From: an uncultured Planctomycetia bacterium
Lineage (GTDB): Bacteria > Omnitrophota > Gorgyraeia > Duberdicusellales > 4484-171
Direction of reading: 5' to 3'
Length of the DNA: 53,011 nucleotides
Assembly (NCBI GenBank): GCA_964489445.1
Contig: CAZAYU010000004.1
Span: 141,198-194,208 of the forward strand
Each line of letters opens with the position of its first letter. Position 1 is the stretch's first letter. The notes beneath the pieces are model-generated. The model saw only the letters and a program-made list of their open reading frames with translations. It had not been told where the DNA came from and searched no databases. The position numbers were made by a program, and so were the translations under genes. Positions 6,298 to 53,011 of this stretch are shown here, in pieces.

Positions 6298-6301
6298 TTT
6301 T

Positions 6302-23727: not shown

Positions 23728-24291
23728 TTAAGGACGGAAGGAATTAAACCGATTTTTTAATCGTTTGCTGATTTCATCATCATCCTCAGAAGAATGGCGC
23801 CGCCAAGAATCAATAACCATAATCAAAGTGCGGCCGTTTTCACTTTCAAATGCCCAGCGAATTCCCAAAACAAGAGAAATTACTAAACATTGGAAAAAAT
23901 ATTTAGGCAGAAAGAATGAAATAACAAATGCACTGATTGCTACAAAAAGAAATAAATATTTTTTCTTTCTTTTTCTATTCTTCCGAACATTATTTTCATT
24001 AGACTTAATTAATGCTTTTGCTTTTTCTATGAATTCTTTAGGCACTTTTGGCTGATTATTTTTCTTATTTAGACTTTCCGACTCAAATATTAAATTTAAT
24101 TGTCCACGGCAGAACCCACAACTGGCAAGGTGCTTCTCAATGCTTGAACATCTTTCTTTCTCGATATTCTGCATAAAGTAATCTATTAAATCTTGCTCAC
24201 AAATACAATCAATTGTTCTTTTTATTTTGGTATTTTCAAGTTCTAAATATTCTTTCAATATTCTTTCTTTTTGATCCATATTCCTCTCCAT
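23728..24291 (-). CDS. zinc-binding (ZAS) anti-sigma factor with two transmembrane helices
   Basis: HLASCGFC (HxxxCxxC), a basic stretch, then two hydrophobic helices; directly downstream of an ECF sigma. The start may be the second Met (24279). Confidence 0.8.
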   Translation of the reverse strand: MERNMDQKERILKEYLELENTKIKRTIDCICEQDLIDYFMQNIEKERCSSIEKHLASCGFCRGQLNLIFESESLNKKNNQPKVPKEFIEKAKALIKSNENNVRKNRKRKKKYLFLFVAISAFVISFFLPKYFFQCLVISLVLGIRWAFESENGRTLIMVIDSWRRHSSEDDDEISKRLKNRFNSFRP

Positions 24292-24293
24292 AT

Positions 24294-24325
24294 TAATAGA
24301 CGAAATTTATTCCGTTTTTCTTTCA
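24294..24325 (-). promoter_or_regulatory. candidate ECF-sigma promoter, copy 1 (between sigma and anti-sigma genes)
   Basis: TGAAAGAA-N15-CGTCTATTA; the TGA is also the stop codon of the sigma gene. Confidence 0.6.
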
Positions 24326-24892
24326 CAAATTATTCATTCCTTTTCTCTCTAAAGCTTGCTTTAGTTTTTGCTTGGTTCTGGAAATTACGGTAGAAACAGT
24401 ATTTATCGGTATGTGCATAATGCCAGAAATTTCTTTATGCGTTCGCCCTTCAAAAAGATTAAAATTAATGATTATTCTTTCTTTGTCGGATAAATTATTT
24501 ACAATGCTGTCAATTAACAAGGCTAAATCTCTCCGGCATAACTCTTGCCGCAAATTATCATCTTTTCCTTCTGAATCATTTATAGCAATTCTTTGATCCC
24601 TGCGAATTTTACCCCGCATAAAATCAACTGCTTTATTAGAAGAAATGACTACTAACCAACCAGTAATCGTTTTAGGATTTTTTATTTGCCGAAGCTTATC
24701 ACTGTTTAGAATAGAAAGAAATACTTCCTGAAATATTTCTCCAACATCATCCTGATTAAATTGAAACCCACTGTGAGCCAATCGTTTACGAATAGCCCAA
24801 TAAATTAATTTTGAGTATTTTTGAACAAATATATCCCAGGTCTTCTTCTGTTTATCAAGACATCCCTTTATCAATTCTGATTCACTAAACAT
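24323..24892 (-). CDS. ECF (group 4) RNA polymerase sigma factor
   Basis: Region 2 (W..FV.KY..., D...IFQEVF, W...I..N...D) and region 4.2 (L...ER.I..., EG..H.EI...M..P.NTV...ISR.K..L); 189 aa. Confidence 0.93.
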   Translation of the reverse strand: MFSESELIKGCLDKQKKTWDIFVQKYSKLIYWAIRKRLAHSGFQFNQDDVGEIFQEVFLSILNSDKLRQIKNPKTITGWLVVISSNKAVDFMRGKIRRDQRIAINDSEGKDDNLRQELCRRDLALLIDSIVNNLSDKERIIINFNLFEGRTHKEISGIMHIPINTVSTVISRTKQKLKQALERKGMNNL

Positions 24893-24941
24893 TAATAGCT
24901 AACTAATGAACTAAATGTGGGCAAATTAAAAAACTATACCT

Positions 24942-24980
24942 TTATAAAACCACTTTCCACCTTGAAGGTAGAAAGTGGTT
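24942..24980 (-). terminator. probable intrinsic terminator after the TPR gene
   Basis: AACCACTTTCTACCT-TCA-AGGTGGAAAGTGGTT: 15-bp stem that is fully paired on the minus strand (one G-U pair), followed by TTAT. Confidence 0.6.
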
Positions 24981-25020
24981 AACAACTCAACACAAGAAAA
25001 TAGAAACGTCCCTTTTAATT

Positions 25021-26049: not shown

Positions 26050-26128
26050 CTCCTTAGATTACTCGTTCTGATTTAAATTTTATCAATCCCTTTAAAATAC
26101 AAAAAATAAGACTCAAGTTCATTTTATC

Positions 26129-29100
26129 CTATCTACCCAAAGCATCAACAAGAATTTGCGCCTGATGATTATCCGGGTCAATATCTATAGCTTTTTTAAA
26201 CTCCTTTTTGGCATCACCAATCGCCCCTTTATCTTTGAATAACACACCCAAGGAAAGATGTGCTTGCGCATTTTGCAAATCAATTTCTATAGCTTTTCGA
26301 TACATTGTTTCAGCTTCGTCTAATCTTTCTTCAGCACAATAAAATCCGCCTAAAGTTAAATAATTTTGGATATCATAAGGAGAAGTTTCTATCGCTTTTT
26401 TGTATACTCCTTCAGCATCTTGTTTTCTATCCATTGCACAATAAATTCTTCCTAAAGAAAGATAAATACGGGAATCACTAATACCACCATTTAGAGCTGC
26501 TTTTAAAGTAATTTCAGCCTCAGTAAATTGGCCTACTGTTTCATAGGCCCTGGCTAAGCTAATTAAAGTATACAGATCATTAGGAAAAATCAATAAAACA
26601 TTTTTGTATTCCTCGATAGCCTTAGATATCAGCCCCTGCTTTAAATAAACTTCCGCTAGCGCATGATTAGCAGAAATTATTTCTAGATTACGATACTGAG
26701 ATTTAATCACTTCGTTTTCCGGTGCCACTGATAACAACTTCTGATATGTTTTTCGAGCCTCATCATACATTCCTTCTGCCTGATAGATTGCGGCTAACTC
26801 AATTAATAGTTCTTGATCCTGGCTGCTAGTTTCTGTTAAATCATAATATACCTTGAGAGCCGCTTGATTATTTCCAGTAAGTTTGTGTAAATTAATCAGC
26901 TTTTTTAATATTTTAATTTTCTTTCGATTAAGTTTTTCTACTTCCTGATATTCGTTAGATGCTTGCTGGAAAAACCCGCTTTCATTTAAATAAGAAATAC
27001 GCTTAAACACATTCTCTAATTCTTGCGGAATCGCTTTTACCACTTGACTATACTCAATTATTGCCTGGTTAATCCGACCATCATTCTGAAACAGTAAAGC
27101 TAATCCTTCATGGGCTTCAACACACTCATTGCGCAAAGAAATCGCCTGTTTATACATTTCTTCTGCTTCCTTTATCTTCCCTTCGCCATACAGGATACTT
27201 GCTAGCTTAACTAGAGATTCGATATTTTTTGGATCTCTTCTTACCGCTTTATAATATTCCCAAACAGCTTTATCATGAAATCCGTTTTTTAAATGAATAT
27301 TGCCCAAAAAATTAGAATTTAGCACTCTCAGACGTTCAGCAGCAGCTTCTGCATCTTCAGTTTTGCCCATCCGTTCATAAATAATGCTTAAGTTATAGAG
27401 GCCACCTTCAAAATCACCATCAATATCCACCGCACGACGAAAACTTTCTTCAGCTTTGGTTAATTTTCCCGCTTGGAAATACACCGTACCTAAGTTATTC
27501 CAAATAGTTGAAGAATAAGGATCAAGTTGAAGTGCTTCTCTGTATGCATCAATAGCCTGTAAATGGTTTGCGGATTGCTGATTAATCCGCCCTTGTAAAA
27601 AATAAGCCTCTACATTATACGGATAAAAACCAATAGACTTATTTAACACATTTAGTGCCGGTTGGATATTCTGGTTAGAAAATTCCCGAGAAGCTCTCTC
27701 TAAAAAATAATCAGAAGCTAAAGGCCGAGCAATTTTAGCGGGAAAAAACAATAAAATAAATACTAAAAATAAGTATACCCCCCCTCTTAAATATGGAGCA
27801 TGCTGTTTATTATTGACTATCTTATTTATTTTTAAAAAATTAAACAGAGCGCGCTGTTTTCCAACAATATTTATTTTAACTACTGTCAACAGTCCAACCA
27901 ACACCCAAAAACACATTCCGGAAGCCGGTGTTTGAAGCACCGGATTAAATAATCCTTGTACTAAAAGCCCTATTAAACTTGCCTCTGTACCTAAAAATAA
28001 TAAACCCCAAGCTTTCCGTTGTTGTTGATTATTAAAAAAACAACGTAATATGAGAAAAGAATCCCGAAAAATAAAAAATAATATAAACCCAAAACAGATA
28101 AATCCTAAACTCCCCATTTCTGCCCAGATTTGGAGAAAATCATTATGAGCTTTAGAATACTTGACCCCCGGAGGAGTAATTGCTTTTTCTTCAGAGCTGC
28201 GATATAGCGGATAAATTATTTTGAAATTACCGGCTCCCGATCCCAATACAGGATGATCAAAAATCATCTCTACAGTAGATTTCCAAACATGAACCCGCAT
28301 CAAATTTCTTACGTGAATGTTTTTACCGAGATATCCTTTGGCTTGAGGTATTAGTGCCGACGCTCCAATAAGCACCAACACGATAAGTCCGATAAATACT
28401 CCAAAAATAACTTTCTTTTTTTCCCGGAATATAAATACTAATAAAATAGCAGCACAACAAAATAAACCGACAAACAATCCGATAAGAGCTCCACGCGAAC
28501 GGCTTAATACCAACAGAATAAGCATCACTGCTGTCGAAAATCCGCAGAAACCGGGAAACAAAAACCGGACATACTTCTTTCGACTATCACGCTTACCTCC
28601 GGAAATAAATATCAATACCAAAGCCAGGGGAATAGCTACCGAAAGATACTGAGCAAAAAATATCGGATTGCCAAAAGTAGAAATATAAGCTAACCGGTAA
28701 ATCTTAAAATTAATGATTTGAGTTTGATATGCACAATAAAGCGCAGAACATAACCCAACAAACACCAAAGTAATAAATATCTTTTTTATTTTTGCTGGCG
28801 AAGAACAATAATTAACAACAATAAAGAACAATAACGCTCCAGATGACCACTGAAGCATTGACTGAAAACCTTCATAAATATTAGCTGCTTGGAATAAAGA
28901 CACCCATCCGGAAACAATAAAAGCAATTACTGCCCAACCTAATGGACCAGGAGAAACAATAAGTTCTTCTTTGTAATTTTTATTAGTATTTGCAGCAATT
29001 TTAATTAGCCATAACCCACACAACCACAAAACTCCCATCTCCAGAGTAACTATTTTAATCAATCCATAAACTTGAGTAGTACTGTGCCAAAAAATAAGGC

Positions 29101-29173
29101 AAACAGCAGCAATTAACAATAACAACCCAATATGTATTACTTTATTCATTATTTTTATTAACTTCTTTTCCAC
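26129..29173 (-). CDS. O-antigen-ligase/O-oligosaccharyltransferase-like membrane protein fused to a long TPR array
   Basis: About 12 hydrophobic helices with STFGNP..FA.YL, SRSRGA..G, R...W...V.M..DHP.LG.G.G.F, AHNDFLQ..AE.G (Wzy_C motifs); roughly 500 C-terminal aa of TPR repeats. Confidence 0.88.
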   Translation of the reverse strand: MEKKLIKIMNKVIHIGLLLLIAAVCLIFWHSTTQVYGLIKIVTLEMGVLWLCGLWLIKIAANTNKNYKEELIVSPGPLGWAVIAFIVSGWVSLFQAANIYEGFQSMLQWSSGALLFFIVVNYCSSPAKIKKIFITLVFVGLCSALYCAYQTQIINFKIYRLAYISTFGNPIFFAQYLSVAIPLALVLIFISGGKRDSRKKYVRFLFPGFCGFSTAVMLILLVLSRSRGALIGLFVGLFCCAAILLVFIFREKKKVIFGVFIGLIVLVLIGASALIPQAKGYLGKNIHVRNLMRVHVWKSTVEMIFDHPVLGSGAGNFKIIYPLYRSSEEKAITPPGVKYSKAHNDFLQIWAEMGSLGFICFGFILFFIFRDSFLILRCFFNNQQQRKAWGLLFLGTEASLIGLLVQGLFNPVLQTPASGMCFWVLVGLLTVVKINIVGKQRALFNFLKINKIVNNKQHAPYLRGGVYLFLVFILLFFPAKIARPLASDYFLERASREFSNQNIQPALNVLNKSIGFYPYNVEAYFLQGRINQQSANHLQAIDAYREALQLDPYSSTIWNNLGTVYFQAGKLTKAEESFRRAVDIDGDFEGGLYNLSIIYERMGKTEDAEAAAERLRVLNSNFLGNIHLKNGFHDKAVWEYYKAVRRDPKNIESLVKLASILYGEGKIKEAEEMYKQAISLRNECVEAHEGLALLFQNDGRINQAIIEYSQVVKAIPQELENVFKRISYLNESGFFQQASNEYQEVEKLNRKKIKILKKLINLHKLTGNNQAALKVYYDLTETSSQDQELLIELAAIYQAEGMYDEARKTYQKLLSVAPENEVIKSQYRNLEIISANHALAEVYLKQGLISKAIEEYKNVLLIFPNDLYTLISLARAYETVGQFTEAEITLKAALNGGISDSRIYLSLGRIYCAMDRKQDAEGVYKKAIETSPYDIQNYLTLGGFYCAEERLDEAETMYRKAIEIDLQNAQAHLSLGVLFKDKGAIGDAKKEFKKAIDIDPDNHQAQILVDALGR

Positions 29174-29415
29174 TTATATAAACCAATTCTTTTAGCACCA
29201 CTTAATCTATATTATCCTTAATCTAATGCTTGATCTTTTCTCCTTATCGTCCGTCGTCCTTCTTCCATCTTCTTTCGTTTTCTCTTCTTGACTTAGAACT
29301 CCAGACTTTCCTACTTATCCTTTTTCCTTTAACCTTTATCCTTATTCTCTCAGCCTCAACCTTACCCTAAACCTCAACCTTTTCTCTCTCTATACTTCTT
29401 ACCTGCAGCTATTGA

Positions 29416-31116: not shown

Positions 31117-31155
31117 TTTACACCTCCGTTTATTTTAAATTTTAAATCCTTAATT

Positions 31156-43200: not shown

Positions 43201-46200
43201 TTTCCATAATACATCCAAATAATTTTAGAGCTAGAAGCGGGGATATACGGAACTTTTACCCAAACAGAAGCAGTAGTTGAAGCAGTATAACTTTCGACCC
43301 AATAACTAATTGGAGTCCCGTCAGAATCGAAGAAACGTAAGTCGTCAAAATCAGCCTGCATATCCGAATCATAAGTAACAGTCAAATTAACCTGATAATT
43401 ATTAAGATTATTAGCGTTGCCGGCATTGTTAATTGTCACTGCCTTTTTCTGTTTCCGATTATCAAGAATGTCTAATAATTCATAAGTACCACTGGAAGCC
43501 GTTGAACGATAATAAGCGTATTTTGGTGCACCACTGGCGTAAAGATTGTGCACTTGGCGATTGCTTAAAGCAGTATTATAAACTCGAACTTCATCGATTT
43601 TACCATCCCAATCATATGAGCTATCCGTAGGCCTACCGGAACCAATAATTAATTCTTGATTAAAATTATAAGAAGTATAAGATTTTTGATAAACATACTC
43701 TCCATCTATAAAGAACTTAGCATTAGATCCATCAAAAACAATTGCCATGTGATGCCAATTAGAATCTGCAGCACCACCGCTAGTTTCTCCCCAACCACTA
43801 GACTGGACTCCCATACTCCAATATCCACCAGTATGTCCAAAATAAGCTCGGGTACTAGCACTCCAGTTTCCTTGAATAAGATACATTTTTCCTGCGGAAG
43901 GATTGTCGGATTTAACCCAAAGTGAATAAGTGCACGGTTGGGTATTAGGATTTACTCCGTTTCCGTAACTAGTTGTTACATAGTCGCCACTTCCGTCAAA
44001 ATCCAAAGCTTTACCGAATTTACCGTCAACCCAGTCCGTAGCCGGATCCATTCCAGTAAGCGTTCCTTGATTTCCATTGCCGGTTAAATCATAGGCGGTC
44101 GCGGCCACCCCTTCATCAAAGCTCCAGTAAGCAGCTAAATTAGCATCACCCGGTTTTGCCGAAAGTTCGACATAATCTCTTCCGGTAGAATAATTAGCCT
44201 GGATTTCGGAAGCAGTAAGTGCGCGATCGTAAACATGAACCTCATCAATGAGTCCGTTGAAATTATATGCTGAGCCACCATCCCAATCTCCGATAGAATA
44301 AGTTCCGTACCCTAAAGTTGCTGTTCCAACATTTGTATCTCCGATATCCACCCCATTCAAATACCAATCAATATTAGATCCGGAACGAGAAACAACAACA
44401 TAATACCAAACATTATTATTTACGGTAGCACCTATAGTGCTTGAAGCAACATCTGCCCAATTGCCAGGCGTTGAGAACCTATATTTGAATCCGCCGGAAG
44501 AAACAGCAAAATCTATACCAGTTGTCTTGGGAACATCACTATAAAGCCCACTCCTAAACAAACCTCTTTCAGTAGCATCATATTGATTAAACCACATGCT
44601 AATTGTCCAGTTATCATTACTAGGATTAAATACAGAACCAACTTCAACATAATCACTGCCGCCATCAAAACTCAAAACCCCACCGGATACACCGTTAGCG
44701 TTATATGTCGCACCATTATTTGTTCCGTCATTACCATAAGCGCTGGAATCTCTTCCTACGTCTGAGCTGTTATCAAAGCTCCAATAACCGATACAATTTG
44801 ATTCGGCAGTTCCTAAACTAGATACCACCGGAGCAGTTCGGTCTAAAGTCGTAACTAGAGTTCCTGTTGATAAGCTAGTAACTACTGCGTCACCATTTTT
44901 CGCTTTTACTTTAAACGTATAAGTAGTATTATCGTCGAGATTAAGAATATCCTGCCCCAACTCACCATTCCAATCAACAAAAATCTGCCAGACTTCACTT
45001 ACTTCATCAAGCAGGCCGTCTGATCCTAACCATTTACTTACATCGGTATTTTCATTAGTTCCATAAATTGCATAAGTAGTCTCAGAAGAATTATCATTAG
45101 TATCAATTTTTAAATTGACCTTGCCTAATTCTGAATTTAACGGCTGATTCGTATAGGCAATTAATGTCAGAGGATTGGGAAGATTAGAATAAGTATATTT
45201 ATAAGCCGGAGAAGGCGTACTCCAGCCAGTTTCATTTCCTGCTCTGTCTCTTACTTTCCAGCGAAAGGCATAAGAAATATTCGGTAAAAGCCCTGAAGGC
45301 GTCCAGGTTCCAGCACACCAACCGCTATTAGCGGAAGCAGAAACAAAAGAAGTATTATCAGCATCATATTCAAAATAACACCATGTAGTTTCCAGGCCAC
45401 TTAGCGCATCTGTAGCCCCGGAAACACTGACATTGATGCTGTTTTCGGTAATTGTACCATAGGCTAGTGTTCCCGGATTATTAGGAATAGTATAATCGAT
45501 ATAGTAAGGGCCAAGATCATTAGAAGTATCATCCCAATTACCGGCATTATCTACCGAGCGGATATGAAAATAATTCCCGGTTCCTTCCGGGAAAGTAATT
45601 CCTACTGAAACAGCAGCTTCTTGTAAATCCTTTGTTGTTCCGGTCCAATCAGCAGAACTGGTATTTACTCCCCAATCATATCCGTCTAATCCACTTAAGT
45701 TATCTGTCGCTGCAGTCCAACTAAAAGTTACATTAGGATTATTAGAAATACCTGATTGCCATCCGTTGATATTATGACTATCGTCGGCAAGACTTCCTAC
45801 TTCCGAAGGATCAGTTGCGTCAATCCAATACGGCCCTTTATAAATATCTCCGGACCAGTTTCCAGCAGAATCAATGGCTTTAATATGAATATAATTAGCT
45901 TGGCTATCGGGAAAAGCAACTGTACTGATTGTTGTCGCACTTTGATAAATAGTATTGTCAGTAGTACTTAACACTGTATCCCCGCTGCTTAAATTTTTAT
46001 AAATATTGTAACCAGAAATACCTGCCTTTACCTCCTCGGAAGAAACTTTTACTAATTTAGCATCATCCCAATAAACAGTTCCAGAAGGACTATTTATTCC
46101 GGAATAAGAAAGTGTAACCGTACCACTGGCTGAAGTTTGGAAAATCGTGCGAATTTGGGTCCAATCAGAAGTACCGGACGCTGTACCTGCCGTACCCTGA

Positions 46201-49200
46201 ATAGTTCCAGCACCGGAGACATCACACTTTGCCTGACCAGCATTTAAGGCAACAGTTTTAACAAAAGCGGAAAATAGATAAATAGAATTTGCATCAATAT
46301 GCGTTCCGATAGTAAAATCGGAAGACCAGACAGAATTACTTCCGGAATAAATAACTTTTAAACTATAATTGCCTTTGTGTTTTATACCTGTATCAAACGA
46401 CTCAGTTGCCGCACCATGTGTATTAGAGCCAACTCTTAAATATCCCTGGTTGACCGGATTTTCCATTACCGGATCATAAATTAAATTGCTTTGGTTTCCT
46501 TCATTATCAAAAGCTTGTTCGTAATAATAATAAGTTGTCCCATTAGAATCAGCGGGGGCAGACCAGGAAAAAGCCACTGCGTTATCATTAGAAACTCCAA
46601 ATTGCCATTGGCTTAAGCCATGAGTATCAGTACAATTAATTGCGCTCAACGCATCTGGAGCAGCTTTGTCAATCGGACTAACATCATAAATTTCTACTTC
46701 CATCAATCCGGTATAACCACCATCACCCCAATTAGAAGTATTAGCGATTCTTACATAACGGCAGATAACCGGATTACCGCTATTTAAAATCGGAAATACC
46801 TGAGGCGCCGGATTTCCAACGCCATCTTCAGCCACTAACACTTCGGTATAACGAGTAACGAAACCGGAAGTAGGTTGATTACTAGTAGAAATGGTGAAAT
46901 CTTTAAATCCTCTTGTGTAGTATGAAGTTTCATTATAATTATAAATCACTGCCCGGTCTATTTTTCGTAGTTTTCCTAAATCAAGAGTAATGTATCCGGT
47001 AGTTGTACCATTAGTTAACCACTGATTACTGACGCTAGTTCCGGTTTTAACAGAATCAATAGCTTTAGTTGCCTCTCTTCCTGAATATTGAGAACTGTAG
47101 TTAGCAATTGCTCCGCCTAAAGCTGAAGCCGCACGGTTAATCGCTAAATCGGTATCAACAAGATGACCATTATCCGGAGTTCCGGCAACTAGCGGACGAG
47201 CCTTTACATTGTCAAATGTTGCTCCGGAAGAATAACTTAATAGACCAATTCCACCGGAAGCATGGCCGGTAAAATCATACTCACCGACAAAAAAATCATC
47301 TACATATAACTTAACATTCTGCCCATCTACCTTTAGCATAATACGATAAGTTACTCCGGCAGTAATTCCCGGATAGCGTTCACTGGCAACATCAACATAT
47401 GAGCCGGTAGCTGCGGTAGTTACACTATCTCTCAACCGCCAGTAATTCCAGCTGGGATTAGCAACTAAAGACATTGTATCTGTTGAACCAGCAGTATTGC
47501 TATTTCTGAATACTACTGCCAGATACCCGGCAGAAGATAATTTAGCGTCAAATTCAAAGATAAAATCTGTATAGGAATGGGTTAAATCTTGCGCCCACAT
47601 CCAGCTAGCTGTAGTCGCCGAATTAACTAGTTGTTCAGAGGTAACCGCCCATGAGCCATTGGTCATAGTAAACCCTTCAGAATTACCGTCAGAAAAATTA
47701 TCCGATAATCCTTCAACCGAATCATAAGTTCCGGTTGAAGAAGGAGCGCGATTAAACGTGTACCCGGCGACATCCGAACCGGTTCCGTCTACCGCATCCC
47801 AGGTAAAAGAGACATTTCCCATCTCCGTAGTTGAGGAAAAAAGAGTTACTTCGGGAATTCCCGGTTGAGTCCGGTCAGCAGTAACTATTCCATCGGGGGG
47901 AGGAATAGAGGAATAATCAGTCCAAACATTATCTAGATTCCTGCCTTTTACCCGATAATAGAGTAAATCACCACAACTTAATCCAGAATGAATATACACT
48001 ATCTCTCTTCGTTTTACACTGGCACTTCCATCAGAATCATTGGTTTCGGTATACGGAACATCTAAGGTAATACTAGAAGTAGTCATGCTCTTAACCGTAT
48101 AGATTGATGACTCTGAAGGATCAGTATTAACAATCTTTATCGTATCTCCAGCGCTTATGTAACTGGTTAAATCAGTAGTAGTAATCACCTGATTACCATT
48201 AGTAACATTAGCACTTCCGGTAGTATCTGTATCTTCTATTTCTAAAATGCTCGATGGAGGTGTTTCATTGTCAATGCCCGGAGCTATTGACCAAGTACCC
48301 GCTCCGTCCGGATCTTCCGAACCATCACTATCGGTAAGGGAAGATTTGAGAGTGTAGCTCTTAGAAGTATGATGCCATCTAATCTTTAGACCACCGGCTC
48401 CAGAATTAAGTGGACCGGAATAAGCAGAAGTTTCAATAGAAATAATTTGCGGTATCGCCGGGCGAGTATACATACTTTCTACCGCACTAAAAGCAGTCTC
48501 TACATTATCTCCGTTACGTGCCTTAACTTTAAACCGGTAAATTTTATCAGCCACAAGACCAGTTACTTCGCAATTACCCCATTCACTATACGTTTTCCAT
48601 TCTGCTGTTCCTCCGCCAATAATTGCATTTTCTGTCGATGCCCAATCTAAATATTTGGTAGTATTGAAACTAGTTGCATCGAAATCATCATCTACAACAA
48701 TCGCGTACTGAGTATTGCCAGCATTTGTCCAAGTTTCAACTCCAGTTGCTGGATTACCATTGCGATTAATAGATACTTGTAAACGATCAATAGAAGTTCC
48801 AGCAATTAAAGAAACTGTGGGAGCATCAGGAACATTACAAAGGGTATATTTAGAAATTGTTGCTGAATACGCTGACTCATTATGCCAGGTACCCTTACTT
48901 TCATTATAATTATCGTGGGCTTTAGATTGATACCCATATTGAGTATTTAATAAAAGTTCAGAATCTGAATAAGAATAAGTAGAAGATGTGGTTTGAATCC
49001 AACCAGAATCAGTACCATTATTTACATTAGTAGTTTCATTGACATAAACCCCAACATCACCTACGCGATACCATTCAATACTGTCATTGTAAGTTTCATT
49101 TAAATATTGTGCGGCCCCAGCTTGAGCTCCAGTTCCAGCACCTTGATCGGAAGGAAGATTACCACTAATAGTAATCTGATTCGTTGAGTTAACTACTACC

Positions 49201-52200
49201 ATAGGAGCCGAAGGAACATTCGGTTGGACATTATCCACAAATACATCACAATACATTGATTCACCCCAACGAATTGAGTAATTTCCGGCTTTATCTAGTG
49301 AATCAAAATGCCAGCGGTTATGACCACTTATGCCGGTAAACGTAGACGACCATGTGCCGTCATCATCATTTAACACGTTTTTATCATCCCAGGTGTAATC
49401 ATAATTATTACCCCAAGCCCCCCAAACTACACCGATAGTACTTAACCCGGAAGGAACATCAGCGGCAGCTCCGGTAATTGTAATCGAAGTAGAATTAGTA
49501 AAGAAATCCTGACCGTCAGTTGTCCACGATTGGCCAATAACTGTATTGGGGTTTAATGTTGGAAGAGTGGTATCAATCCAAATCGGGCCAATAGTTTGAA
49601 CTGCAGAAATATTTCCAGCACCATCTTCAGCTTTAACATAAATATTATGGATAGAGTCGGCTGCTCCTCCGGTTAATACAGCAGTAACCTCGCTTAATGT
49701 TGTTCGCGAAACCCAGGTACCACCACTTTCCGGAGTTGAATCATCAACTGCCCACCAATATCCGGAAACAGGTGTAGCTACAATTGATGATTCTATTGAT
49801 GTATCTATCTCGTTACCTTCGTCGTCTAATGTAGTCAAAGAATAAAAGTAATCATCCGGAGAACCGGAATCAGAGTTAGCTTCCAACCATTCAAAATCAA
49901 CATTAGGAATGTTAGAAATATTTGATTGCCAGACTCCCATATTGTGTGTGGATGAACCATCAGTATTATCTTTTACCGGAGTAGTAGGAATTAGCGTATC
50001 CCCACCGGAGGAAGGAATTACCTTAATATTATCTACATACCAAGTAGTATCTACAGTTCCATAGCCATAACTAGCAAACCAGATCTTCTTAATACCCGTA
50101 GATCCGGCATCAGCAAACGCTACAGTATTGCAATGTTCACCATTAATATAGTACCTTACAACATTATTTGTATTATCAATATACACCTTAAAATGATAAG
50201 TACTTCCTACTGACAATCCAGACTCTACCGACTGCCATCCGGCAGAAATATATGTTTGCCAATGTTCATTACTTATGGCCGAGTGAATTATTTCGGTGGT
50301 CCAACTGGTATTAGAAGTTGAATCTCCTACCTCAAACAAAAAGTCCCAGCTGTTAGAATCAGTAACCGTTAAATCAAATTCAATAGTTGCATTAGCGGTA
50401 ATTTCCGAAGGCAATTGGTACATTGCGTAATCATAAGATTCACTGGGTGCAGAAGCCGGATGCACCATTTTTAAGCGTCCATTATCCACAGTATAAGCCG
50501 CACCATCAGTTATATCTTTAGTCCAGCCGATTGAAGTAATATCACTTCCGGTTAATATCCCAGAAAAATCTTGAGCATAACCGCCAAAAGTATCCACTAT
50601 CTCGTTTGTGCTAATTAATGGCGTTACTGTAATATCTTTAAAGTATTTGCTGTTTACATTTCCATAACCGGCTAAATTAAAGTGTGTACCGGAAGCATTG
50701 GGGGTGCGCGCTGAACCTTTTAATATCTGTACTCCATCAATTGCAACCGTTATTGCATTATTAGAATCAATAAGGATATCAAACTGATACTCAGTATTAT
50801 ATGCAAAAGTATAACTTGAACTTTGAAACGGTGAATTAGAACCGTCAATTAATCCGACAACATTTCCATAACCCTGGTTTTTAAATACTACACCGTAACC
50901 GTTCCAAGGAGCATATGTTCCGCTAGAAGGAGCGCGCACACTGACAATTGCCTCTTCATTAGCCGCTGCTTCAAAGCCAAAAGTTCCGGAAATCTTTAAA
51001 TTATTTTGTTGAGCAATCGGTTGTTGAACTCCGGCATCATAATAAAAATATAAATTATTACTTAATATTTTATTATCACTGGCACTGACTTCTGTGCCTA
51101 CACTTTGTCCATTCCGTGATTCAATCCATACACCTCCGGTAGATGCCAAACCAACTGTATCACTATTTGCTCGCGTAAAACTATCATAAATCGCCGCATC
51201 GCCTACCGGTTCATAAGTTCCGCCTAAAGTGCTTGAACGGTAATAAGTATACTTAGGAGCACCACTAGCATAAAGATCGTGCACCTCTTGAGCACTCAGT
51301 GCAGAACTATAAATCCGGACTTCATCGATTTTACCATTGGCAGTATACCCGGCATAACCACCACCTATTGCTGAATATTGTGCATTCGCACCTATTCCTC
51401 CACTTTCCGTATTTTTCAACTCACCATCGATAAAAATACTTCTGGAATCGGTATCCATTACCCAGATTACATGATGCCATTGATTTAAAGATATCCCGGT
51501 TGTAGTTTGAATAACTGTATTATCAAACCGAAAATATACTTTTTCATTAGACCCCATATGACCTACTTCAAGATTATTAGCTCCATCAATAAGGCTAAAC
51601 CAACGCGGATTGCTAGCGTCATCACGCGGATTAACCCAAAATGCTATTGTAAAATCTCCAGACAAACTAGCACTACTATCCGGTATACTCACATAATCAT
51701 CCGTTCCATCAAAATCTAAACCTGTATTGAACTTACCAACTATCCAGTCTGTATCCAAATCCATATTGATAAGTGTTCCTTTCTTCTCATTACCACTAGA
51801 ATCATAAGCAACGGCTCCGAAACCTTCATCAAAATCCCAGTAAGCAGCTAAATTAGCATCACCGGGTTTTGCCGAAAGTTCAACGTAATCTCTACCGGTT
51901 GAATAATTTGCCTCGATCTCAGAATCAGTAAGTGCACGATTATAAATCCGAGTTTCATCAACAATGCCATTTAAATAACCAATCCTCACAGACTTAGCAA
52001 TATACAGTGGTTCCGAAGAACTAAAAGAAACGTTCCTGCTAAACGAATTACTACCTACAGCATCTTTAAACCCCTGCATTGTTCCATTTTGTCTTCTGAC
52101 TACCACATGGTGCCATTTTCCATCTTCGATATTCGCCATAACTGAACCAAACTCACCAGCATTACCCGCCGTGTATGTACCTCCAGCTAAGTCCATATAA

Positions 52201-53011
52201 AATCCACCATAAGCTGGATAAATTCCCATTCCCCAACTATCCCTTGAACTATTCATCTTGGTAATGATTTCTCCCGTTGTATCAGTTGTTTTTATCCAAA
52301 ATTCAATTGTAAAATCATTTGTCCCAAAATTCCCGGCATCAATATTTCCGCAATCCACATAATCATCACTCCCGTCAAAACTCAAAGCTCCACCGGAAAC
52401 TCCACTGGCATTATAAGTAGCACCAGTATTCGTCCCGTCATTATCTTGGGCACTATAATCTTTTCCTATATTGGTGTTGTCATTAAAGCTCCAATAACCC
52501 AGACAATTTGATTCGGCAGTACCTAAACCAGAAACTGCCGGTTCAGTGCGGTCAGGAGTAGGAACTGAAGCGCTAGGTGATGAATTGGTTTCTACTCCAT
52601 CTGAGTTCCTTGCTTTTACCTGAAAAGTATAGTAAGTATTGTCCTCAAGATTAATAATATCTTTTCCGGAAGCGCTACCCCAATTAGCATAGGTCTGCCA
52701 AGTTTCCGATACTTCATCAAGTATACCGTCTGAGCCTAACCATTTCGTTACACCGGTATTTTCATTAACCCCATTAATTGCGTAAGTAGTATAAGCAGGA
52801 TTTCCAGTAATATTAATTATTAAATTAATTTTACCTAATTCCGAATTAAGTGCTTGATTCGTATACGCAGTAATTGTAGGTGCGCTCAAGTATGTCGCCC
52901 GTGTATATACCGGATCCGATTGAGTACCATAAGCAGTCTGGACATCATTTCCGTTACGAGCTTTTACTTTTAAAGTGTATACCGTATTACTGTCTAAGCC
53001 GGTAATTGTTT
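31239..53011 (-). CDS. giant multidomain extracellular protein (at least 7256 aa, 5'-truncated by the window): LamG x4, FN3/Ig-like repeats, DUF1080-like, F5/8C-like, CBM-like, DUF2341
   Basis: Uninterrupted frame from the window edge to TAA at 31239. Upstream of the TTG at 52889 it reads TITGLDSNTVYTLKVKARNGNDVQTAYG, another FN3-type repeat. LamG pattern GYWSF...G.DG...GA.SFDG..DYV...F(T/S)I..W...WHH...DE.R.Y..AL occurs four times; DUF2341 pattern YQV.L...MQ.DF.DLRF.D.DG..ISYWVE occurs once. Confidence 0.95.
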   Translation of the reverse strand, partial: TITGLDSNTVYTLKVKARNGNDVQTAYGTQSDPVYTRATYLSAPTITAYTNQALNSELGKINLIINITGNPAYTTYAINGVNENTGVTKWLGSDGILDEVSETWQTYANWGSASGKDIINLEDNTYYTFQVKARNSDGVETNSSPSASVPTPDRTEPAVSGLGTAESNCLGYWSFNDNTNIGKDYSAQDNDGTNTGATYNASGVSGGALSFDGSDDYVDCGNIDAGNFGTNDFTIEFWIKTTDTTGEIITKMNSSRDSWGMGIYPAYGGFYMDLAGGTYTAGNAGEFGSVMANIEDGKWHHVVVRRQNGTMQGFKDAVGSNSFSRNVSFSSSEPLYIAKSVRIGYLNGIVDETRIYNRALTDSEIEANYSTGRDYVELSAKPGDANLAAYWDFDEGFGAVAYDSSGNEKKGTLINMDLDTDWIVGKFNTGLDFDGTDDYVSIPDSSASLSGDFTIAFWVNPRDDASNPRWFSLIDGANNLEVGHMGSNEKVYFRFDNTVIQTTTGISLNQWHHVIWVMDTDSRSIFIDGELKNTESGGIGANAQYSAIGGGYAGYTANGKIDEVRIYSSALSAQEVHDLYASGAPKYTYYRSSTLGGTYEPVGDAAIYDSFTRANSDTVGLASTGGVWIESRNGQSVGTEVSASDNKILSNNLYFYYDAGVQQPIAQQNNLKISGTFGFEAAANEEAIVSVRAPSSGTYAPWNGYGVVFKNQGYGNVVGLIDGSNSPFQSSSYTFAYNTEYQFDILIDSNNAITVAIDGVQILKGSARTPNASGTHFNLAGYGNVNSKYFKDITVTPLISTNEIVDTFGGYAQDFSGILTGSDITSIGWTKDITDGAAYTVDNGRLKMVHPASAPSESYDYAMYQLPSEITANATIEFDLTVTDSNSWDFLFEVGDSTSNTSWTTEIIHSAISNEHWQTYISAGWQSVESGLSVGSTYHFKVYIDNTNNVVRYYINGEHCNTVAFADAGSTGIKKIWFASYGYGTVDTTWYVDNIKVIPSSGGDTLIPTTPVKDNTDGSSTHNMGVWQSNISNIPNVDFEWLEANSDSGSPDDYFYSLTTLDDEGNEIDTSIESSIVATPVSGYWWAVDDSTPESGGTWVSRTTLSEVTAVLTGGAADSIHNIYVKAEDGAGNISAVQTIGPIWIDTTLPTLNPNTVIGQSWTTDGQDFFTNSTSITITGAAADVPSGLSTIGVVWGAWGNNYDYTWDDKNVLNDDDGTWSSTFTGISGHNRWHFDSLDKAGNYSIRWGESMYCDVFVDNVQPNVPSAPMVVVNSTNQITISGNLPSDQGAGTGAQAGAAQYLNETYNDSIEWYRVGDVGVYVNETTNVNNGTDSGWIQTTSSTYSYSDSELLLNTQYGYQSKAHDNYNESKGTWHNESAYSATISKYTLCNVPDAPTVSLIAGTSIDRLQVSINRNGNPATGVETWTNAGNTQYAIVVDDDFDATSFNTTKYLDWASTENAIIGGGTAEWKTYSEWGNCEVTGLVADKIYRFKVKARNGDNVETAFSAVESMYTRPAIPQIISIETSAYSGPLNSGAGGLKIRWHHTSKSYTLKSSLTDSDGSEDPDGAGTWSIAPGIDNETPPSSILEIEDTDTTGSANVTNGNQVITTTDLTSYISAGDTIKIVNTDPSESSIYTVKSMTTSSITLDVPYTETNDSDGSASVKRREIVYIHSGLSCGDLLYYRVKGRNLDNVWTDYSSIPPPDGIVTADRTQPGIPEVTLFSSTTEMGNVSFTWDAVDGTGSDVAGYTFNRAPSSTGTYDSVEGLSDNFSDGNSEGFTMTNGSWAVTSEQLVNSATTASWMWAQDLTHSYTDFIFEFDAKLSSAGYLAVVFRNSNTAGSTDTMSLVANPSWNYWRLRDSVTTAATGSYVDVASERYPGITAGVTYRIMLKVDGQNVKLYVDDFFVGEYDFTGHASGGIGLLSYSSGATFDNVKARPLVAGTPDNGHLVDTDLAINRAASALGGAIANYSSQYSGREATKAIDSVKTGTSVSNQWLTNGTTTGYITLDLGKLRKIDRAVIYNYNETSYYTRGFKDFTISTSNQPTSGFVTRYTEVLVAEDGVGNPAPQVFPILNSGNPVICRYVRIANTSNWGDGGYTGLMEVEIYDVSPIDKAAPDALSAINCTDTHGLSQWQFGVSNDNAVAFSWSAPADSNGTTYYYYEQAFDNEGNQSNLIYDPVMENPVNQGYLRVGSNTHGAATESFDTGIKHKGNYSLKVIYSGSNSVWSSDFTIGTHIDANSIYLFSAFVKTVALNAGQAKCDVSGAGTIQGTAGTASGTSDWTQIRTIFQTSASGTVTLSYSGINSPSGTVYWDDAKLVKVSSEEVKAGISGYNIYKNLSSGDTVLSTTDNTIYQSATTISTVAFPDSQANYIHIKAIDSAGNWSGDIYKGPYWIDATDPSEVGSLADDSHNINGWQSGISNNPNVTFSWTAATDNLSGLDGYDWGVNTSSADWTGTTKDLQEAAVSVGITFPEGTGNYFHIRSVDNAGNWDDTSNDLGPYYIDYTIPNNPGTLAYGTITENSINVSVSGATDALSGLETTWCYFEYDADNTSFVSASANSGWCAGTWTPSGLLPNISYAFRWKVRDRAGNETGWSTPSPAYKYTYSNLPNPLTLIAYTNQPLNSELGKVNLKIDTNDNSSETTYAIYGTNENTDVSKWLGSDGLLDEVSEVWQIFVDWNGELGQDILNLDDNTTYTFKVKAKNGDAVVTSLSTGTLVTTLDRTAPVVSSLGTAESNCIGYWSFDNSSDVGRDSSAYGNDGTNNGATYNANGVSGGVLSFDGGSDYVEVGSVFNPSNDNWTISMWFNQYDATERGLFRSGLYSDVPKTTGIDFAVSSGGFKYRFSTPGNWADVASSTIGATVNNNVWYYVVVSRSGSNIDWYLNGVDIGDTNVGTATLGYGTYSIGDWDGGSAYNFNGLIDEVHVYDRALTASEIQANYSTGRDYVELSAKPGDANLAAYWSFDEGVAATAYDLTGNGNQGTLTGMDPATDWVDGKFGKALDFDGSGDYVTTSYGNGVNPNTQPCTYSLWVKSDNPSAGKMYLIQGNWSASTRAYFGHTGGYWSMGVQSSGWGETSGGAADSNWHHMAIVFDGSNAKFFIDGEYVYQKSYTSYNFNQELIIGSGRPTDSSYDWDGKIDEVRVYNTALSNRQVHNLYASGAPKYAYYRSTASSGTYELLDILDNRKQKKAVTINNAGNANNLNNYQVNLTVTYDSDMQADFDDLRFFDSDGTPISYWVESYTASTTASVWVKVPYIPASSSKIIWMYYGNSEAESLSNKSFVFPYDLKNPDFEETNTCLEPSATVQNFGWNHFDGTADNDCLEVNTLKAHSGTKSFGNSYSCNAVCDDEGSAATYPTTYMYQDVSVGSNDRYIVEATYWFQGIVFNGSGCPDLSETGGEDDSRLRLVYYNSGESQIGSYLGPSFSGLGYTSGWTWLKYTDVSETMPSNTAKVRVQVEGGDYNNSCGGFGGGGNAGGYYDDFSVIIRKYTSPEPSASFGAEQPAVWNGSDYADTFGGFYDNFSDGDTNGWVVNGSPTLANGTIALSGTDNEIHTTDKYGSGVLEIKINSASTSSAARFGMSDGQFTTYPSSSNSVFFHHWSGGLLYEDCYPGGSQNQSGTYAAGQDYYYKIIFVKNSHAELYQNGILKKKYDIAPNADMNIWLMSDGAIAQTFDWVKFTPIGADKGDNQAPSIPEKNPADGSNSHNTSVWQSGISNDNTVDFGYTQPLSNGDDYFYYASTVDGEGNKSSDNFILNPYFEKNTNDWSIGGAGAVSVEPNGPAGSYAKFDVNSGGEAVSFRSNVFSQEAGKTYHLSFWYKVSRADYNGSFRVGGYNGGTHWEFILSGEQSTDWKHVERTYTVQYGTPTYTNQFWVFGYQDVDVYIDDIEIYEVKSVNVTTPISGYWWAKTIATSTPPAFNTTNWTWVPRTTVNITTPALDGDCVNYIHYIHVKAEDGAGNLSGIQTTGPIWVDTVLPTVTLSSHTNGSSYYNNTGTITINGTSQDCPSNVDYTIWNIDRNNETGSYNSVTAPCTAWNGATEGDPNWSGTWQNLSGENWIYIADYDKAGNFSGWNQHVKLFTDTAAPNNPSFSVVDAVSGSQINLNWSLPADNGSGSGYPYTVDDVGVSVKRDSTIIYSTGHSENNYFWNDLSVSDTGRSENTQYTYTISAQDNTQEIRGNWHNTTSYVGSSSKYTLCNLPTGFDAVSDVVDEKPYIDLTVDTFPNHGSGSSGYKFDNVDPDNYNSEYWTSGWQSADNTWTDDNPEDLEEGLYPDYYYCYRVWYRNGDGDPDIDGDGGYVDDSGDYVTLCKWSLPKIPVITSVESSDSAGTLNSGGGGLKITWTYTSYSYDIEASPNGTTGWEILTTDTAPEGSWVPDIKYVEGTVVEATLNVTQGSDTVSVVGFSGDLNDVLEVSEYIKIDSTDHAGIYKIMDINDVSDVLTILPAFPNPAYNGYCGATDSDVAFEENLHVLYIHSGLGQGEHRWYRVKGRNLEDDETAYSNIDDGVVTVDRVKPTIPETEIVSNSSDMGSIDLSWSVSDPTDTSLSGYTFNRASALTGDYFPADGLWDSFSSTPGNWILTSGASISSGIMSCDDTTNSTYTDPGYSKNRVVEIDFERTSGRNIYLVARYKDSNNFVWFGYEKMRGSTYWFWQETLNGSLKKEQGKIIYDLDNDIVYHAMIICKDDHYRLYINDQFVMSYDNSDFTDSNYRFGLSTEGSVVEFDNVSIRPLIADTITSGTLSVTNNSTSVTTSVNLTSYFSTGDYVSIYNSSVDPFESSIYQVQAITSNSITLDSPYTGTTDSGAGVVAYDNLYNDVVSEVSVSASGGTNPANLIDNNLSTAWTYGAATGSVTIDLGAIRTVDRAVIYNLNQYSGGFKAFTISTSPDNSNYTQRYSGTLASEDGSGNPAPQAFPILNSGNPVACRYVRIANTSNWENAGSIGLVEVEIYDVGPVDKAAPAVLSEISCDDTHTLTEWKYGVSNDNTVAFSWIAPVSNGSNYYYQEIAMDNEGNQSNLVFDPSMENTEYPGYIKEDSITQNGTFSFDESNKYKGNASLKFSCSASDAYRGAVLTIGADIDANSTYLFSAFVKTNLTSGLAKCNVTGSGSIVNYSTASGISDWAEIRTIFTTSASGTVTISYFADDPNSGGQVWWDNTRIVKISSDVVTTPISGYNIYKNLSNSDTLLTTSNTIIYQSAIAISTIVFDESPNNYIHIKAIDGAGNRANDISKGPYQIDTIAPVGQAINSIVANSYSQLTVNAATGSDATSDLYNGANISSPAEDEGNGPYWFDETGGGPGANDSIWVISTAHVDSGLYPNTQYTYQVKLRDNAGNKTIYSTSSSRYTLARVPGTPVGTLPAMDVIDRLTVTIDKNLNPIAAEWTSCADTQYAITVQGGGYVYGTHFVDPDTNGIITVENDAWDVYSAFGGASGELITGLAENTQYRFKVKARNAENVQTAYGSELAIYTRVMSLTDGEVTLSVGTNYVDLEVVATHPNPTADDTGAYFDNFTGSGCNGDDSGWQNGDYTYRDYGLVNAQYGYKVILRNGDGVETNPNPTEKEIYTLANTPSIPSAILPSGYTSTYHLRVRVNQNGNPVGVATCTTSNDTEYAIMVDFDDPETAGTDESADFLPVKWVNPANGEIVASEAWGTYSAFNGANYENVVNLAANQRYRFKAMARNGDEINTTYSSDVSLCTRATRPRVISVTTTYRAPLDSNSGGVEIRWANTSDDYLLYKYLSGWKAVDTGWAASGQYGVPPTGNTEDTDTSGTANVTNASITVSTSDLRSYLTAGDSIKIVNTSPVEEGVYTVKTVGSSYVTLDSLYEGTTDSDGSVTVKRRDVFYFDNGLESWYGNNFYNTRGRNSCDVETDSNLYSGYKYASYIADRQIPGTSDLALAPLPAGMGSMDLSWSVSDPTDTSLSGLSGYNFLRAPNVTGNYYPVDGFYDNFSSSNNAWILPAGATISGGKLTCVNTNNNQAYTDQSFSGNRIIEFDFKRTSGSYISLTAKYVDSNNYIRFYLYYSYGGYYDYWRCERKVNGSTSYTYQSGNNRIYLTQGQTYHAKIICNGSMYKFYINDVFLMERSDANFSGATYRMALGSYNSTVEFDNVSIRPLIADTSTAGTLSVTNNSTSVTTSVNLTSYFSTGDYVSIYNSSVDPFESSIYQVQAITSNSITLDSPYTGTTDSGAGVVAYDNLSNDTAANHAVSSNGGTIENQTTGSQNPNYLIDGNLSTAWVDADSATGYITIDLGVSRVIDRAVIYNRNQSSGGFKAFTISTSPDNSSYTQRYSGTLASEDGSGNPAPQVFPILNSGDPVVCRYIRIANTSNWQSAGSTGLNEVEIYDVGPIDKAQPSALGTIEDGNHNPNTWQFGISNDNTVAFSWSAPVSNGTTYYYYDQAIDYEGNTSNLLYDPTMDNLDYPGYLKEDSNIQSSVLNATPGTLSVTYDNESVATTSDLTAYFSVDSYIKIVNTSPAESSIYKISAITSNSITLNAPYTGTTDSDGSVVANFLTFDESIYYKGNKSLRFDCPASDVYWGVDLTVGTELEANSTYLFSAIVKTSLTAGQAKCNVSGAGLSAIEAPQTTASGTSDWTKIRTIFNTGASGAIALSYYVDSPNNGGQVWWDDATLVKIESSPVASNIAGYSIYKNLESNDTLLTTTDTVIYQGETSNSSVVFPEGNTNFIHIKTVDSAGNIAEDFSQGPYYIDITPPQEVTNLVPSDGRATGIWQSGISNNPTLRFNWIAALDTDNGVSNSGLDGYDYTINTSSADWTGITKDLQETNTYQQINFPDGTGNYFHIRSVDNAGNWDTTSSDSGPYYIDIITPIPGTLSYGTITQNSISVSVSGATDARSGIPATAWCKFQHDNDLDYFESESDFDGDSGWCDGSWVVSGLDNDDFAFRWKVRDRAGNESAWTYPDPSYKHLLPDNSDVRYDQRGHLPQTWYQYLSGGSHDEFIFYSVRLDNNAIDYYRYKWNTTSDSEVIGTDTQWTSGSLSLTYNFIGRENWLHLKAYNSDGVASSEGTIHLQYCYVSTTHLLKRKQFFNSNKEIDTAQSASDTLFPDNPSSPATETHAVSNDVWQNSVSDPEFTWSGAQDNLSGVKGYYWYFGTSASDNPSNWTTFAGHNPDAVSSGVYYLRVKTEDNSGNISTSQTVFIFKYDGSVPSNPNLPATETHGATNNTLQSTVSDPEFTWNGATDNRSGIKQYYWYFGNNASGLPVTSTAYAGCNPNAVGTGTYYLRVKTEDKAGNISNPVTLFTFRYSTP
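31245..31860 (-). repeat. two tandem 102-aa C-terminal Ig-like repeats of the giant protein
   Basis: 306-nt offset; shared CATGAGTTTCAGTTGC (31508/31814) and CCAAGTAAATTCCGGATCAGA (31455/31761) on the + strand. Confidence 0.9.
34441..34719. repeat. intragenic direct repeat, copy B (partner at 38581-38859)
   Basis: 279 nt with 9 mismatches by manual comparison; 34471-34649 is identical to 38611-38789; offset 4140 nt. Confidence 0.95.
38581..38859. repeat. intragenic direct repeat, copy A (partner at 34441-34719)
   Basis: Same comparison as for copy B. Confidence 0.95.
43520..45180 (-). repeat. second copy of the FN3-LamG-LamG block (first copy about 51260-52890)
   Basis: AYTNQ.LNSELGK.NL, KWLGSDG.LDEVSE.WQ, LGTAESNC.GYWSF and YSTGRDYVELSAKPGDANLAAYW recur with an offset of about 7710 nt. 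Confidence 0.9.

Follow-up and report, generated by a model that had tools for sequence, protein, structure and literature searches.

The locus considered here raises a simple question: do six neighbouring genes for surface and signalling proteins in an uncultured, probable member of the Omnitrophota form one apparatus, or do they belong to separate units? The stretch of DNA analysed, hereafter the window, is a 53-kb segment (53,011 nt) of assembly GCA_964489445.1 (contig CAZAYU010000004.1, positions 141,198 to 194,208). The nearest homologues, by their names, make an Omnitrophota origin probable. In order of transcription, the six genes encode a giant lectin-domain protein, an exported fibre-like protein, a fusion of a Wzy_C glycan ligase with tetratricopeptide repeats (TPR), an exported TPR protein, and an extracytoplasmic function (ECF) sigma factor with a zinc-binding anti-sigma factor (ZAS; Table 1). 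The Omnitrophota are abundant, mostly uncultured nanobacteria suspected of a predatory or host-dependent life. The region reads best as a surface-protein island in which several separate units lie side by side, rather than as a single six-gene machine, and the fibre, the Wzy_C ligase and the TPR region are the only conserved module within it.

The conserved fibre, ligase and TPR module

Eight distinct orthologous loci were compared. Counting the window, six loci (the window, L012, L013, L016, L021 and L100) offer 2 kb or more of sequence upstream of the ligase, and all six have a fibre-like gene 3 kb or less ahead of the Wzy_C and TPR genes, as against none of the 45 distant Wzy_C loci, each with at least 3 kb of upstream sequence, that served as controls. 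Because the Wzy_C proteins are only 41-70% identical pairwise (41-47% between the relatives and the window, 48-70% among the relatives), these loci represent distinct lineages. The L012 fibre has 1,408 aa and a C-terminal tip 42% identical to that of the window, and its gene overlaps the ligase gene by 4 nt; the L100 fibre has 817 aa and a tip 54% identical to that of the window, with an insertion sequence (IS) element between fibre and ligase; and the 2,210-aa fibre of L016 is followed by a Cys-rich protein and DsbA before the ligase. The segment between fibre and ligase in this last locus, from an Omnitrophica relative (positions 7340-10004), is worth recording in itself: the Cys-rich product is a 585-aa secreted protein whose Cys residues are strongly concentrated at the C-terminus, and the DsbA gene overlaps the ligase gene by 4 nt.

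The ligase half of the fusion protein is a member of the Wzy_C family (PF04932; 78.5-80.3 bits against a gathering cutoff of 31.7, with residues 1-450), and its start codon may be an ATG eight codons downstream of the called start. Catalytic residues were judged against R215, R288 and H338 of Escherichia coli WaaL, which lie in periplasmic loops. R225 of the window protein is invariant across 20 ligase orthologues, and over 30 sequences R293 is invariant and H343/N344 nearly so, W297 being invariant as well. R293 and H343-N344 lie in the large periplasmic loop, and R293-W297 and H343-N344 align with two motifs, RxxxW and HND, of a WaaL structure, 7TPG (E 8e-6), the sole sequence relative of the ligase in the PDB. 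The Wzy_C domain and TPR array that the initial annotation assigned to this gene are both present, with the catalytic Arg and His of WaaL/PglL-type enzymes kept.

Hydropathy places a single transmembrane (TM) segment at aa 464-482, followed by about 13 TPRs, and since a K/R-rich loop precedes this segment, the positive-inside rule predicts that the TPR array is periplasmic. The AlphaFold model of the protein has a confidence (pLDDT) of 81.6. In Foldseek its TPR array has its nearest structural neighbours in OGT and SPINDLY, both of them protein glycosyltransferases, although TPR similarity is generic; the search was swamped by TPR proteins and provided no independent test of the WaaL fold. As a query on genome contigs, the whole ligase-TPR protein found weak TPR-level similarity only, among the matches listed. 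The 19 closest homologues of the ligase (36-47% identical, 397-446 aa, one of them named Candidatus Omnitrophica) carry no TPR region. In all eight relatives ligase and TPR are two genes, so the fusion is specific to the window organism. The separate TPR gene follows Wzy_C, often with a 4-nt overlap, and encodes a protein of 524-536 aa that begins with a single TM segment and is 29-37% identical to the C-terminal half of the window protein over about 540 aa. An assembly or frameshift artefact is ruled out as the source of the fusion, the same in-frame fusion being found in the independent assembly L002; a further assembly, L001, has an identical Wzy_C start on a contig that ends before the fusion junction.

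The fibre protein was rightly recognised as a fibre in the initial annotation, and it resembles both the mosaic adhesive trimer (MAT) fibres of Bdellovibrio and phage tail fibres by sequence, PDB match and Foldseek. It begins with a Sec-type signal peptide (aa 1-33; a helix at 2-27 in the AlphaFold model) and an N-terminal beta-sandwich (aa 38-125, pLDDT 87-95) that is the sole confident part of the model. No Pfam domain was found in it, and no Peptidase_S74. Over aa 25-91 it gives a weak match to the NCBIfam model NF053851 (Bdello_MAT_N), 25.5 bits where the cutoff is 60, which spans model positions 3-72 of 162; the syntenic fibres of the relatives lack even a weak match of this kind. In phmmer searches of the PDB its matches were 8oml (E 2.2e-6), 8ond (7.8e-5) and 8on4 (4e-3), all Bdellovibrio MAT structures, and beyond the MATs a weak match to the L-shaped tail fibre of phage T5. 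Foldseek with the fibre model, whose shaft is of low confidence, ranked MAT fibres (Bd1334, Bd2133, Bd3182, Bd2439) in the top 13 places, followed by the T5 tail fibre.

A linker (aa 146-232) is the most widely shared stretch of the fibre, and GNxGIGT shaft repeats follow it; matches to the shaft come both from PHROG tail-fibre families and from the tail fibres of cyanophages and pelagiphages. The tip (aa ~485-566) is a phage-type module of about 80 aa, GDVxFANDFxITE...GNLYxKGE. A word-indexed collection held 908 mosaic homologues of the fibre, many with Peptidase_S74, Mtd_N or YadA_head, and several carry the Mtd_N domain that is associated with diversity-generating retroelements (DGR). With the last 156 aa of the fibre as query, the word-index search returned a single protein, and an exhaustive HMMER search, used instead, returned 1,540 representative proteins. 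A scan of a viral-contig collection found no relatives of the fibre. The tip module also ends short tail-fibre-like proteins (369-592 aa) in L101, L102, L103 and L104, phage-like contigs with Amidase_2, End_tail_spike, a primase and many small open reading frames (ORFs) and with no Wzy_C gene, and the tip is therefore common to phages and the cellular fibre. For the same reason, the idea that the conserved C-terminus of the fibre is a ligase-specific recognition tag was rejected.

From sequence and model, then, the fibre is best described as an exported chimera that joins an N-terminal domain to a shaft and a tip both of phage type, resembling a MAT fibre of the kind without S74; it may form a trimer displayed at the surface. 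Strict membership of the MAT family is unproven, because the cutoff of the model that defines the N-terminal domain is not reached.

The acceptor of the ligase

What would such a ligase do beside a fibre? Since the catalytic Arg and His of WaaL/PglL enzymes are kept, it would most likely transfer a finished, undecaprenyl-pyrophosphate-linked polysaccharide to an acceptor at the periplasmic face. In the relatives, synthesis and export of this polysaccharide would fall to the Wzm/Wzt pathway encoded alongside. The acceptor would be the fibre itself, possibly also the Ser/Thr-rich giant, and the TPR solenoid would hold the protein substrate. The synteny (six of six loci against none of 45) and the 4-nt overlap in L012 make a glycan-related link between fibre and ligase plausible; we favour the fibre as acceptor on the strength of this synteny, of the translational coupling seen in L012 and of the analogy with S-layer glycosylation, to which PglL genes beside their pilin targets add a second. 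In parallel with those systems, our tentative suggestion is glycosylation of the fibre by this ligase, which may act on further Ser/Thr-rich surface proteins too, the giant among them. Gene content, synteny, the conserved catalytic residues and the terminator are what the analysis shows; donor, acceptor, topology (from hydropathy) and any role in attachment to prey or host are what we infer.

Several findings weigh against fibre glycosylation. A protein acceptor and lipid A-core cannot be told apart from the sequence of such a ligase (PMC3643930), and a site beside an ATP-binding cassette (ABC) transporter O-polysaccharide cluster is equally expected of WaaL. The PglL_A motif (PF15864, a model built on proteobacterial PglLs) gave no match at E <= 0.5 in the 480-aa ligase domain, and no glycan-synthesis gene lies in the 53 kb of the window. 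Fibre and ligase genes are separated by a 242-nt spacer in the window and by other genes in L013, L016 and L100, and in L019 the 1.6 kb of sequence ahead of the ligase contains no fibre gene. The C-terminal tip occurs, as described above, in phage-like contigs without Wzy_C. Finally, distant lineages often have a TPR gene or region after Wzy_C with no fibre in the vicinity, so the TPR region need not bind the fibre.

Much of this would also fit a plain lipopolysaccharide (LPS) O-antigen ligase, a WaaL that joins the polysaccharide exported by Wzm/Wzt to lipid A-core, and we regard that role as nearly as likely as fibre glycosylation. The adjacency of the fibre would then reflect the clustering of envelope genes, or the fibre would dock on this strain-specific O-polysaccharide through one of its end domains. 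In L098 and L013 the ligase-TPR pair heads an ABC-transporter polysaccharide cluster, which in L098 comprises GT1, the initiating enzyme Glycos_transf_4, a Glf-like oxidoreductase, Wzm, Wzt with Wzt_C, and GT2, and in L013 the same set minus GT1 and a recognisable Wzm (Glycos_transf_4, Wzt, GT2); in L021 the pair is followed by Glycos_transf_4 and then the contig end. That the only relative in the PDB is a WaaL, that PglL_A is absent and that Wzy_C with TPR is widespread without fibres all point the same way, and the cell-surface ligand of the MAT N-terminal domain has not been identified, according to Caulton et al. (PMC10769870). Classical WaaLs, however, have no TPR partner, the window copy does not lie beside LPS or glycan-synthesis genes, and the synteny with the fibre (six of six loci against none of 45), together with the translational overlap in L012, calls for a more specific link.

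It is also conceivable that fibre and ligase have no functional link at all, a domesticated tail-fibre gene and a ligase having become neighbours through the shared ancestry of a variable surface island or as remnants of a seroconverting prophage. The phage-like shaft and tip are consistent with this, as are the IS200/Y1_Tnp and toxin-antitoxin genes interspersed in L013, L019 and L100. We consider it improbable: the adjacency persists, despite rearrangements, across lineages with ligases no more than 41-57% identical, the window holds no other phage genes, the fibre has a Sec signal peptide, and the scan of viral contigs was empty.

Glycosylation of the fibre remains our preferred reading, and it can be carried one step further. 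This Omnitrophota clade may possess a dedicated module, akin to S-layer glycosylation, in which the ligase with its TPR solenoid attaches a polysaccharide exported by Wzm/Wzt to a MAT-like fibre of phage tail-fibre origin used in predatory or epibiotic adhesion, and perhaps to the giant, or its ligase may build the surface glycan on which the fibre docks; we put forward this pair of proposals as a rather doubtful extension. If the ligase does build a glycan docked by the fibre, it would identify the cell-side ligand of MAT-type fibres.

Neighbouring genes and the remainder of the window

The initial annotation had read all six genes as a single prey-attachment apparatus in which the ligase-TPR and exported TPR proteins glycosylate and assemble the giant and the fibre, with signals passing through the ECF/anti-sigma pair to DNA-uptake genes. 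We now think this very improbable. The genes are adjacent, and all are related to the envelope or to signalling; all six are real and lie on the - strand at the coordinates given for them. The window, however, has 30 ORFs of at least 100 aa, of which the 27 non-nested ones are all on the - strand and the three on the + strand are nested inside - strand genes, so the co-orientation of the six is uninformative; GC skew is negative across the whole window. From giant to anti-sigma factor the spacers are, in transcription order, 122, 242, 79, 128 and 31 nt, and 451 nt follow before spoVG. The proposed order of giant, fibre, ligase-TPR, exported TPR, ECF and ZAS recurs in the relatives as regards fibre, ligase and TPR (six of six loci); the exported TPR gene recurs nowhere, and the ECF/ZAS pair lies near the ligase only in the window and in L012. 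The latter locus comes nearest to the six-gene proposal, its genes running, as in the window, from Wzy_C and TPR through small TPR proteins to ECF and ZAS.

The giant is incomplete: its frame runs without a stop through 7,256 codons and off the edge of the window, so that the N-terminus, with any signal or anchor, lies outside. The independent assembly L001 matches its final 2,197 aa without a single difference. Pfam confirmed the LamG and F5/8C folds that had been recognised from the letters, with at least four copies of Laminin_G_3 (E 1e-84) and three F5/8 type C domains (E 3e-10 to 4e-15), and added DUF2341 (3e-18), weak fn3 and Big matches and three sub-threshold DUF1080-like ConA-fold domains. 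The carbohydrate-binding module also claimed for it has sub-threshold matches only (Sialidase-like_CBM, E 0.007). No catalytic or toxin domain was found in the ten 726-aa segments searched with Pfam, in agreement with the first reading of the visible part. Self-comparison revealed mega-repeats 30-76% identical: aa 1-600 resemble 2570-3177, and aa 876-2640 resemble both 3611-5240 and 5230-6916. The protein is indeed Ser/Thr-rich, at 21% Ser+Thr against 6-16% in the other window proteins (fibre, 19%). In the window, L012 and L016, large proteins with LamG or Ig domains come before the fibre. The membership of the giant in a surface system is weaker than the link of fibre and ligase, as this arrangement is confined to those loci. 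Judged by its sequence, the giant is a predicted adhesin of enzyme-less, mega-repeat, lectin-domain type, and a unit separate from the conserved fibre-ligase module.

For the exported TPR protein of 342 aa no orthologue turned up in the related loci, and the assembly role proposed for it was not borne out. Between its gene and the ECF gene lies a strong predicted terminator (z = -3.4; none of 200 shuffles folds as well), and hairpins occur at the same position before the ECF gene in L012 and L013. The identities of the sigma pair are sound. The ECF factor matches TIGR02937 (70 bits against a cutoff of 42.9) and Sigma70_r4_2 (E 4e-9), with a weak Sigma70_r2; the anti-sigma gene starts 31 nt after it and encodes HLASCGFC (H54-x3-C58-x2-C61, the HxxxCxxC motif) and then a hydrophobic hairpin. 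The Pfam match of the window protein is below reporting level, and its L012 orthologue carries zf-HC2. As only a 43-aa tail follows the membrane hairpin, the anti-sigma factor is without an extracytoplasmic sensor domain.

The place of this pair in a surface system was not upheld. It is missing near the ligase in L016, L019, L021, L098 and L100, it is followed by spoVG in each of the three loci where it was found (the window, L012 and L013), and L013 keeps the order ECF-ZAS-spoVG-dprA-comM at 57-75% identity to the window. From the terminator and this gene order, the ECF/ZAS pair looks like a transcription unit separate from the surface genes. Sigma-70 promoter-like sites were not above shuffles (24 against 29) and were not used, and inspection by eye upstream of the ECF gene (window, L012, L013), the fibre and the ligase, few sequences in all, gave no convincing common ECF-type promoter. 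In L013, positions 135-1850 hold bAvd and reverse-transcriptase genes, a DGR cassette, placed immediately before a 341-aa gene and the ECF/ZAS pair; the window has no DGR.

The surface genes were said to be followed by DNA-recombination genes, and dprA, comM/yifB and yraN are indeed there, their identities confirmed, with one gene in between that had been missed: spoVG (PF04026, E 4e-18), which ends 3 nt before dprA. Conservation of dprA, comM/yifB and yraN is wide and extends to bacteria without known competence. The spoVG-dprA-comM-yraN block, conserved independently in L013, consists of independent housekeeping neighbours with no link to the surface genes. A relay of contact through the ECF pair to DNA uptake has no support: a terminator precedes the pair, the anti-sigma factor is sensor-less, and a generic housekeeping block is set behind spoVG and the 451-nt spacer. 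We have removed surface-contact signalling to DNA uptake as an attractive story that lacks support.

Some smaller observations concern these genes and their flanks. In L013 (GCA_964455085.1) a 508-aa ORF (7007-8533) joins ComM residues 1-211 (68% identical to the window) in frame with the C-terminal ~290 aa of a fibre (34%); IS200/Y1_Tnp genes lie nearby, and the chimera reflects either a rearrangement that permuted the gene order of the window or a misassembly. AG-rich spacers lie on the - strand upstream of the ligase (29174-29415) and of spoVG (23400-23640) and have in common the 13-mer GAAGGACGACGGA (29250-29262 and 23487-23499), which is not significant (7 of 100 shuffles match). The other 19 kb of the window hold pyrimidine biosynthesis and further housekeeping functions. 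There, a 68-aa ORF with a signal peptide (19762-19968, - strand) ends at a TAG stop, and the same frame continues to about 19600 as a plausible lysine-rich tail of ~55 aa, which may reflect an interrupted gene, read-through of the stop codon or a pair of small genes. The pyrimidine-biosynthesis block includes two ORFs without a Pfam match, one of 428 aa (14537-15823, - strand) and one of 413 aa (11034-12275, - strand); a 149-aa SLOG-cluster4/DprA-like gene (10440-10889) adjoins tRNA-Arg(CCG) at 10954-11026; and a 118-aa ORF (1875-2231, - strand) that matches the TauE/SafE sulfite exporter, a model of 237 positions, looks truncated or split.

Table 1. Features of the surface-protein island and its boundary, in window coordinates
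Feature	Coordinates	Strand	Basis and remarks
Giant surface protein, partial	31239..53011	-	Open frame to window edge, at least 7,256 aa; Pfam domains
Exported trimeric-fibre-like protein, 566 aa	29416..31116	-	Signal peptide; PDB, Foldseek and PHROG matches
Wzy_C + TPR fusion protein, 1,014 aa	26129..29173	-	Pfam
Wzy_C (WaaL/PglL-type) polytopic ligase domain, aa 1-480 of fusion	27734..29173	-	Pfam, motifs
TM anchor and ~13 TPR repeats, C-terminal half of fusion	26129..27733	-	Hydropathy, AlphaFold model
Exported TPR protein, 342 aa	25021..26049	-	Signal peptide; without orthologue, membership doubtful
Predicted intrinsic terminator	24942..24980	-	15-bp perfect hairpin, then UUUUAU
ECF-type sigma-70 factor, 189 aa	24323..24892	-	TIGR02937; separate transcription unit
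Zinc-binding (HxxxCxxC) anti-sigma factor, 187 aa	23728..24291	-	Motif, membrane hairpin, 43-aa tail
SpoVG homologue, 90 aa	23004..23276	-	PF04026; heads spoVG-dprA-comM-yraN block, region boundary

Relation to known systems

The giant belongs with a kind of gene already described in what is probably the same phylum. Like the giant genes of Omnitrophota (bioRxiv 10.1101/2023.11.21.568195; 10.64898/2026.06.07.730766), for which adhesion to other cells has been proposed, it is very long, built of repeats, predicted to be extracellular and equipped with carbohydrate-binding domains that include F5/8C. It differs from them in its visible length (7.3 kaa against 30-85 kaa), in having no enzyme domains and in its setting: those loci have genes resembling a type II secretion system upstream and PilZ and sugar import downstream, whereas here the fibre, ligase-TPR, TPR and ECF/ZAS genes lie downstream and the upstream side is beyond the window.

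The ligase can be set beside three types of relative. With WaaL (7TPG) it shares the R-x3-W and H-N-D motifs, a polytopic architecture with a large periplasmic loop and, in its relatives, a site beside a Wzm/Wzt cluster; it departs from WaaL in the fused or adjacent TPR solenoid of ~530 aa, predicted to be periplasmic, in the synteny with a fibre and in the lack of an LPS-core locus in the window. The genes of O-oligosaccharyltransferases adjoin their targets (PMC3643930), and like PglL/PilO beside pilin genes the ligase has a Wzy_C core with Arg, Arg and His and a candidate target filament next to it. Unlike PglL/PilO, it has no detected PglL_A motif and its candidate target is not a type IV pilin. 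As to the siting typical of PglL, beside the target and outside LPS loci, the picture is mixed: the gene adjoins a fibre at six of six loci, but in three relatives it lies beside a polysaccharide cluster.

The slg clusters of Geobacillus stearothermophilus and Paenibacillus alvei offer a parallel on which the proposed glycosylation draws. They use Wzm/Wzt and lie near an S-layer gene; WsfB carries TPR, and WsaB, without TPR, has an adjacent TPR gene, wsaA (PMC2943079). A Wzy_C ligase with a fused or adjacent TPR region, a surface-protein gene close by and, in the relatives of the window, an ABC-transporter glycan pathway alongside are common to both systems. The slg clusters are Gram-positive, with the S-layer as target and a TPR region of one motif or a 168-aa protein, whereas the present organism is presumably diderm, with the fibre as candidate target and a TPR region of ~530 aa.

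The nearest counterparts of the fibre are the MAT fibres of Bdellovibrio bacteriovorus, specifically the subgroup without S74 (PMC10769870), which likewise have a signal peptide, a beta-rich N-terminal domain of ~100-130 aa, a repetitive shaft and a swappable C-terminal tip. Unlike these, the window fibre has an N-terminal domain that falls below the NCBIfam cutoff and covers less than half of the model, belongs to a different host phylum, and is linked to a Wzy_C ligase, a link not reported for MATs. A full-text literature search found the papers on giant genes and no report of tail-fibre-like proteins in Omnitrophota, and papers on Omnitrophota and O-antigen ligase, judged by title, dealt with other topics. 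MAT-like fibres, resembling phage tails, occur outside Bdellovibrio, and in one clade they are tied to a glycan ligase and TPR, which provides a testable hypothesis for the modification or anchoring of fibres and, for a phylum about which little is known, a candidate system of protein O-glycosylation. While each component is of a known kind, the conserved combination, in which a MAT-like fibre goes with a Wzy_C ligase and a large TPR partner predicted to be periplasmic, is new in this phylum.

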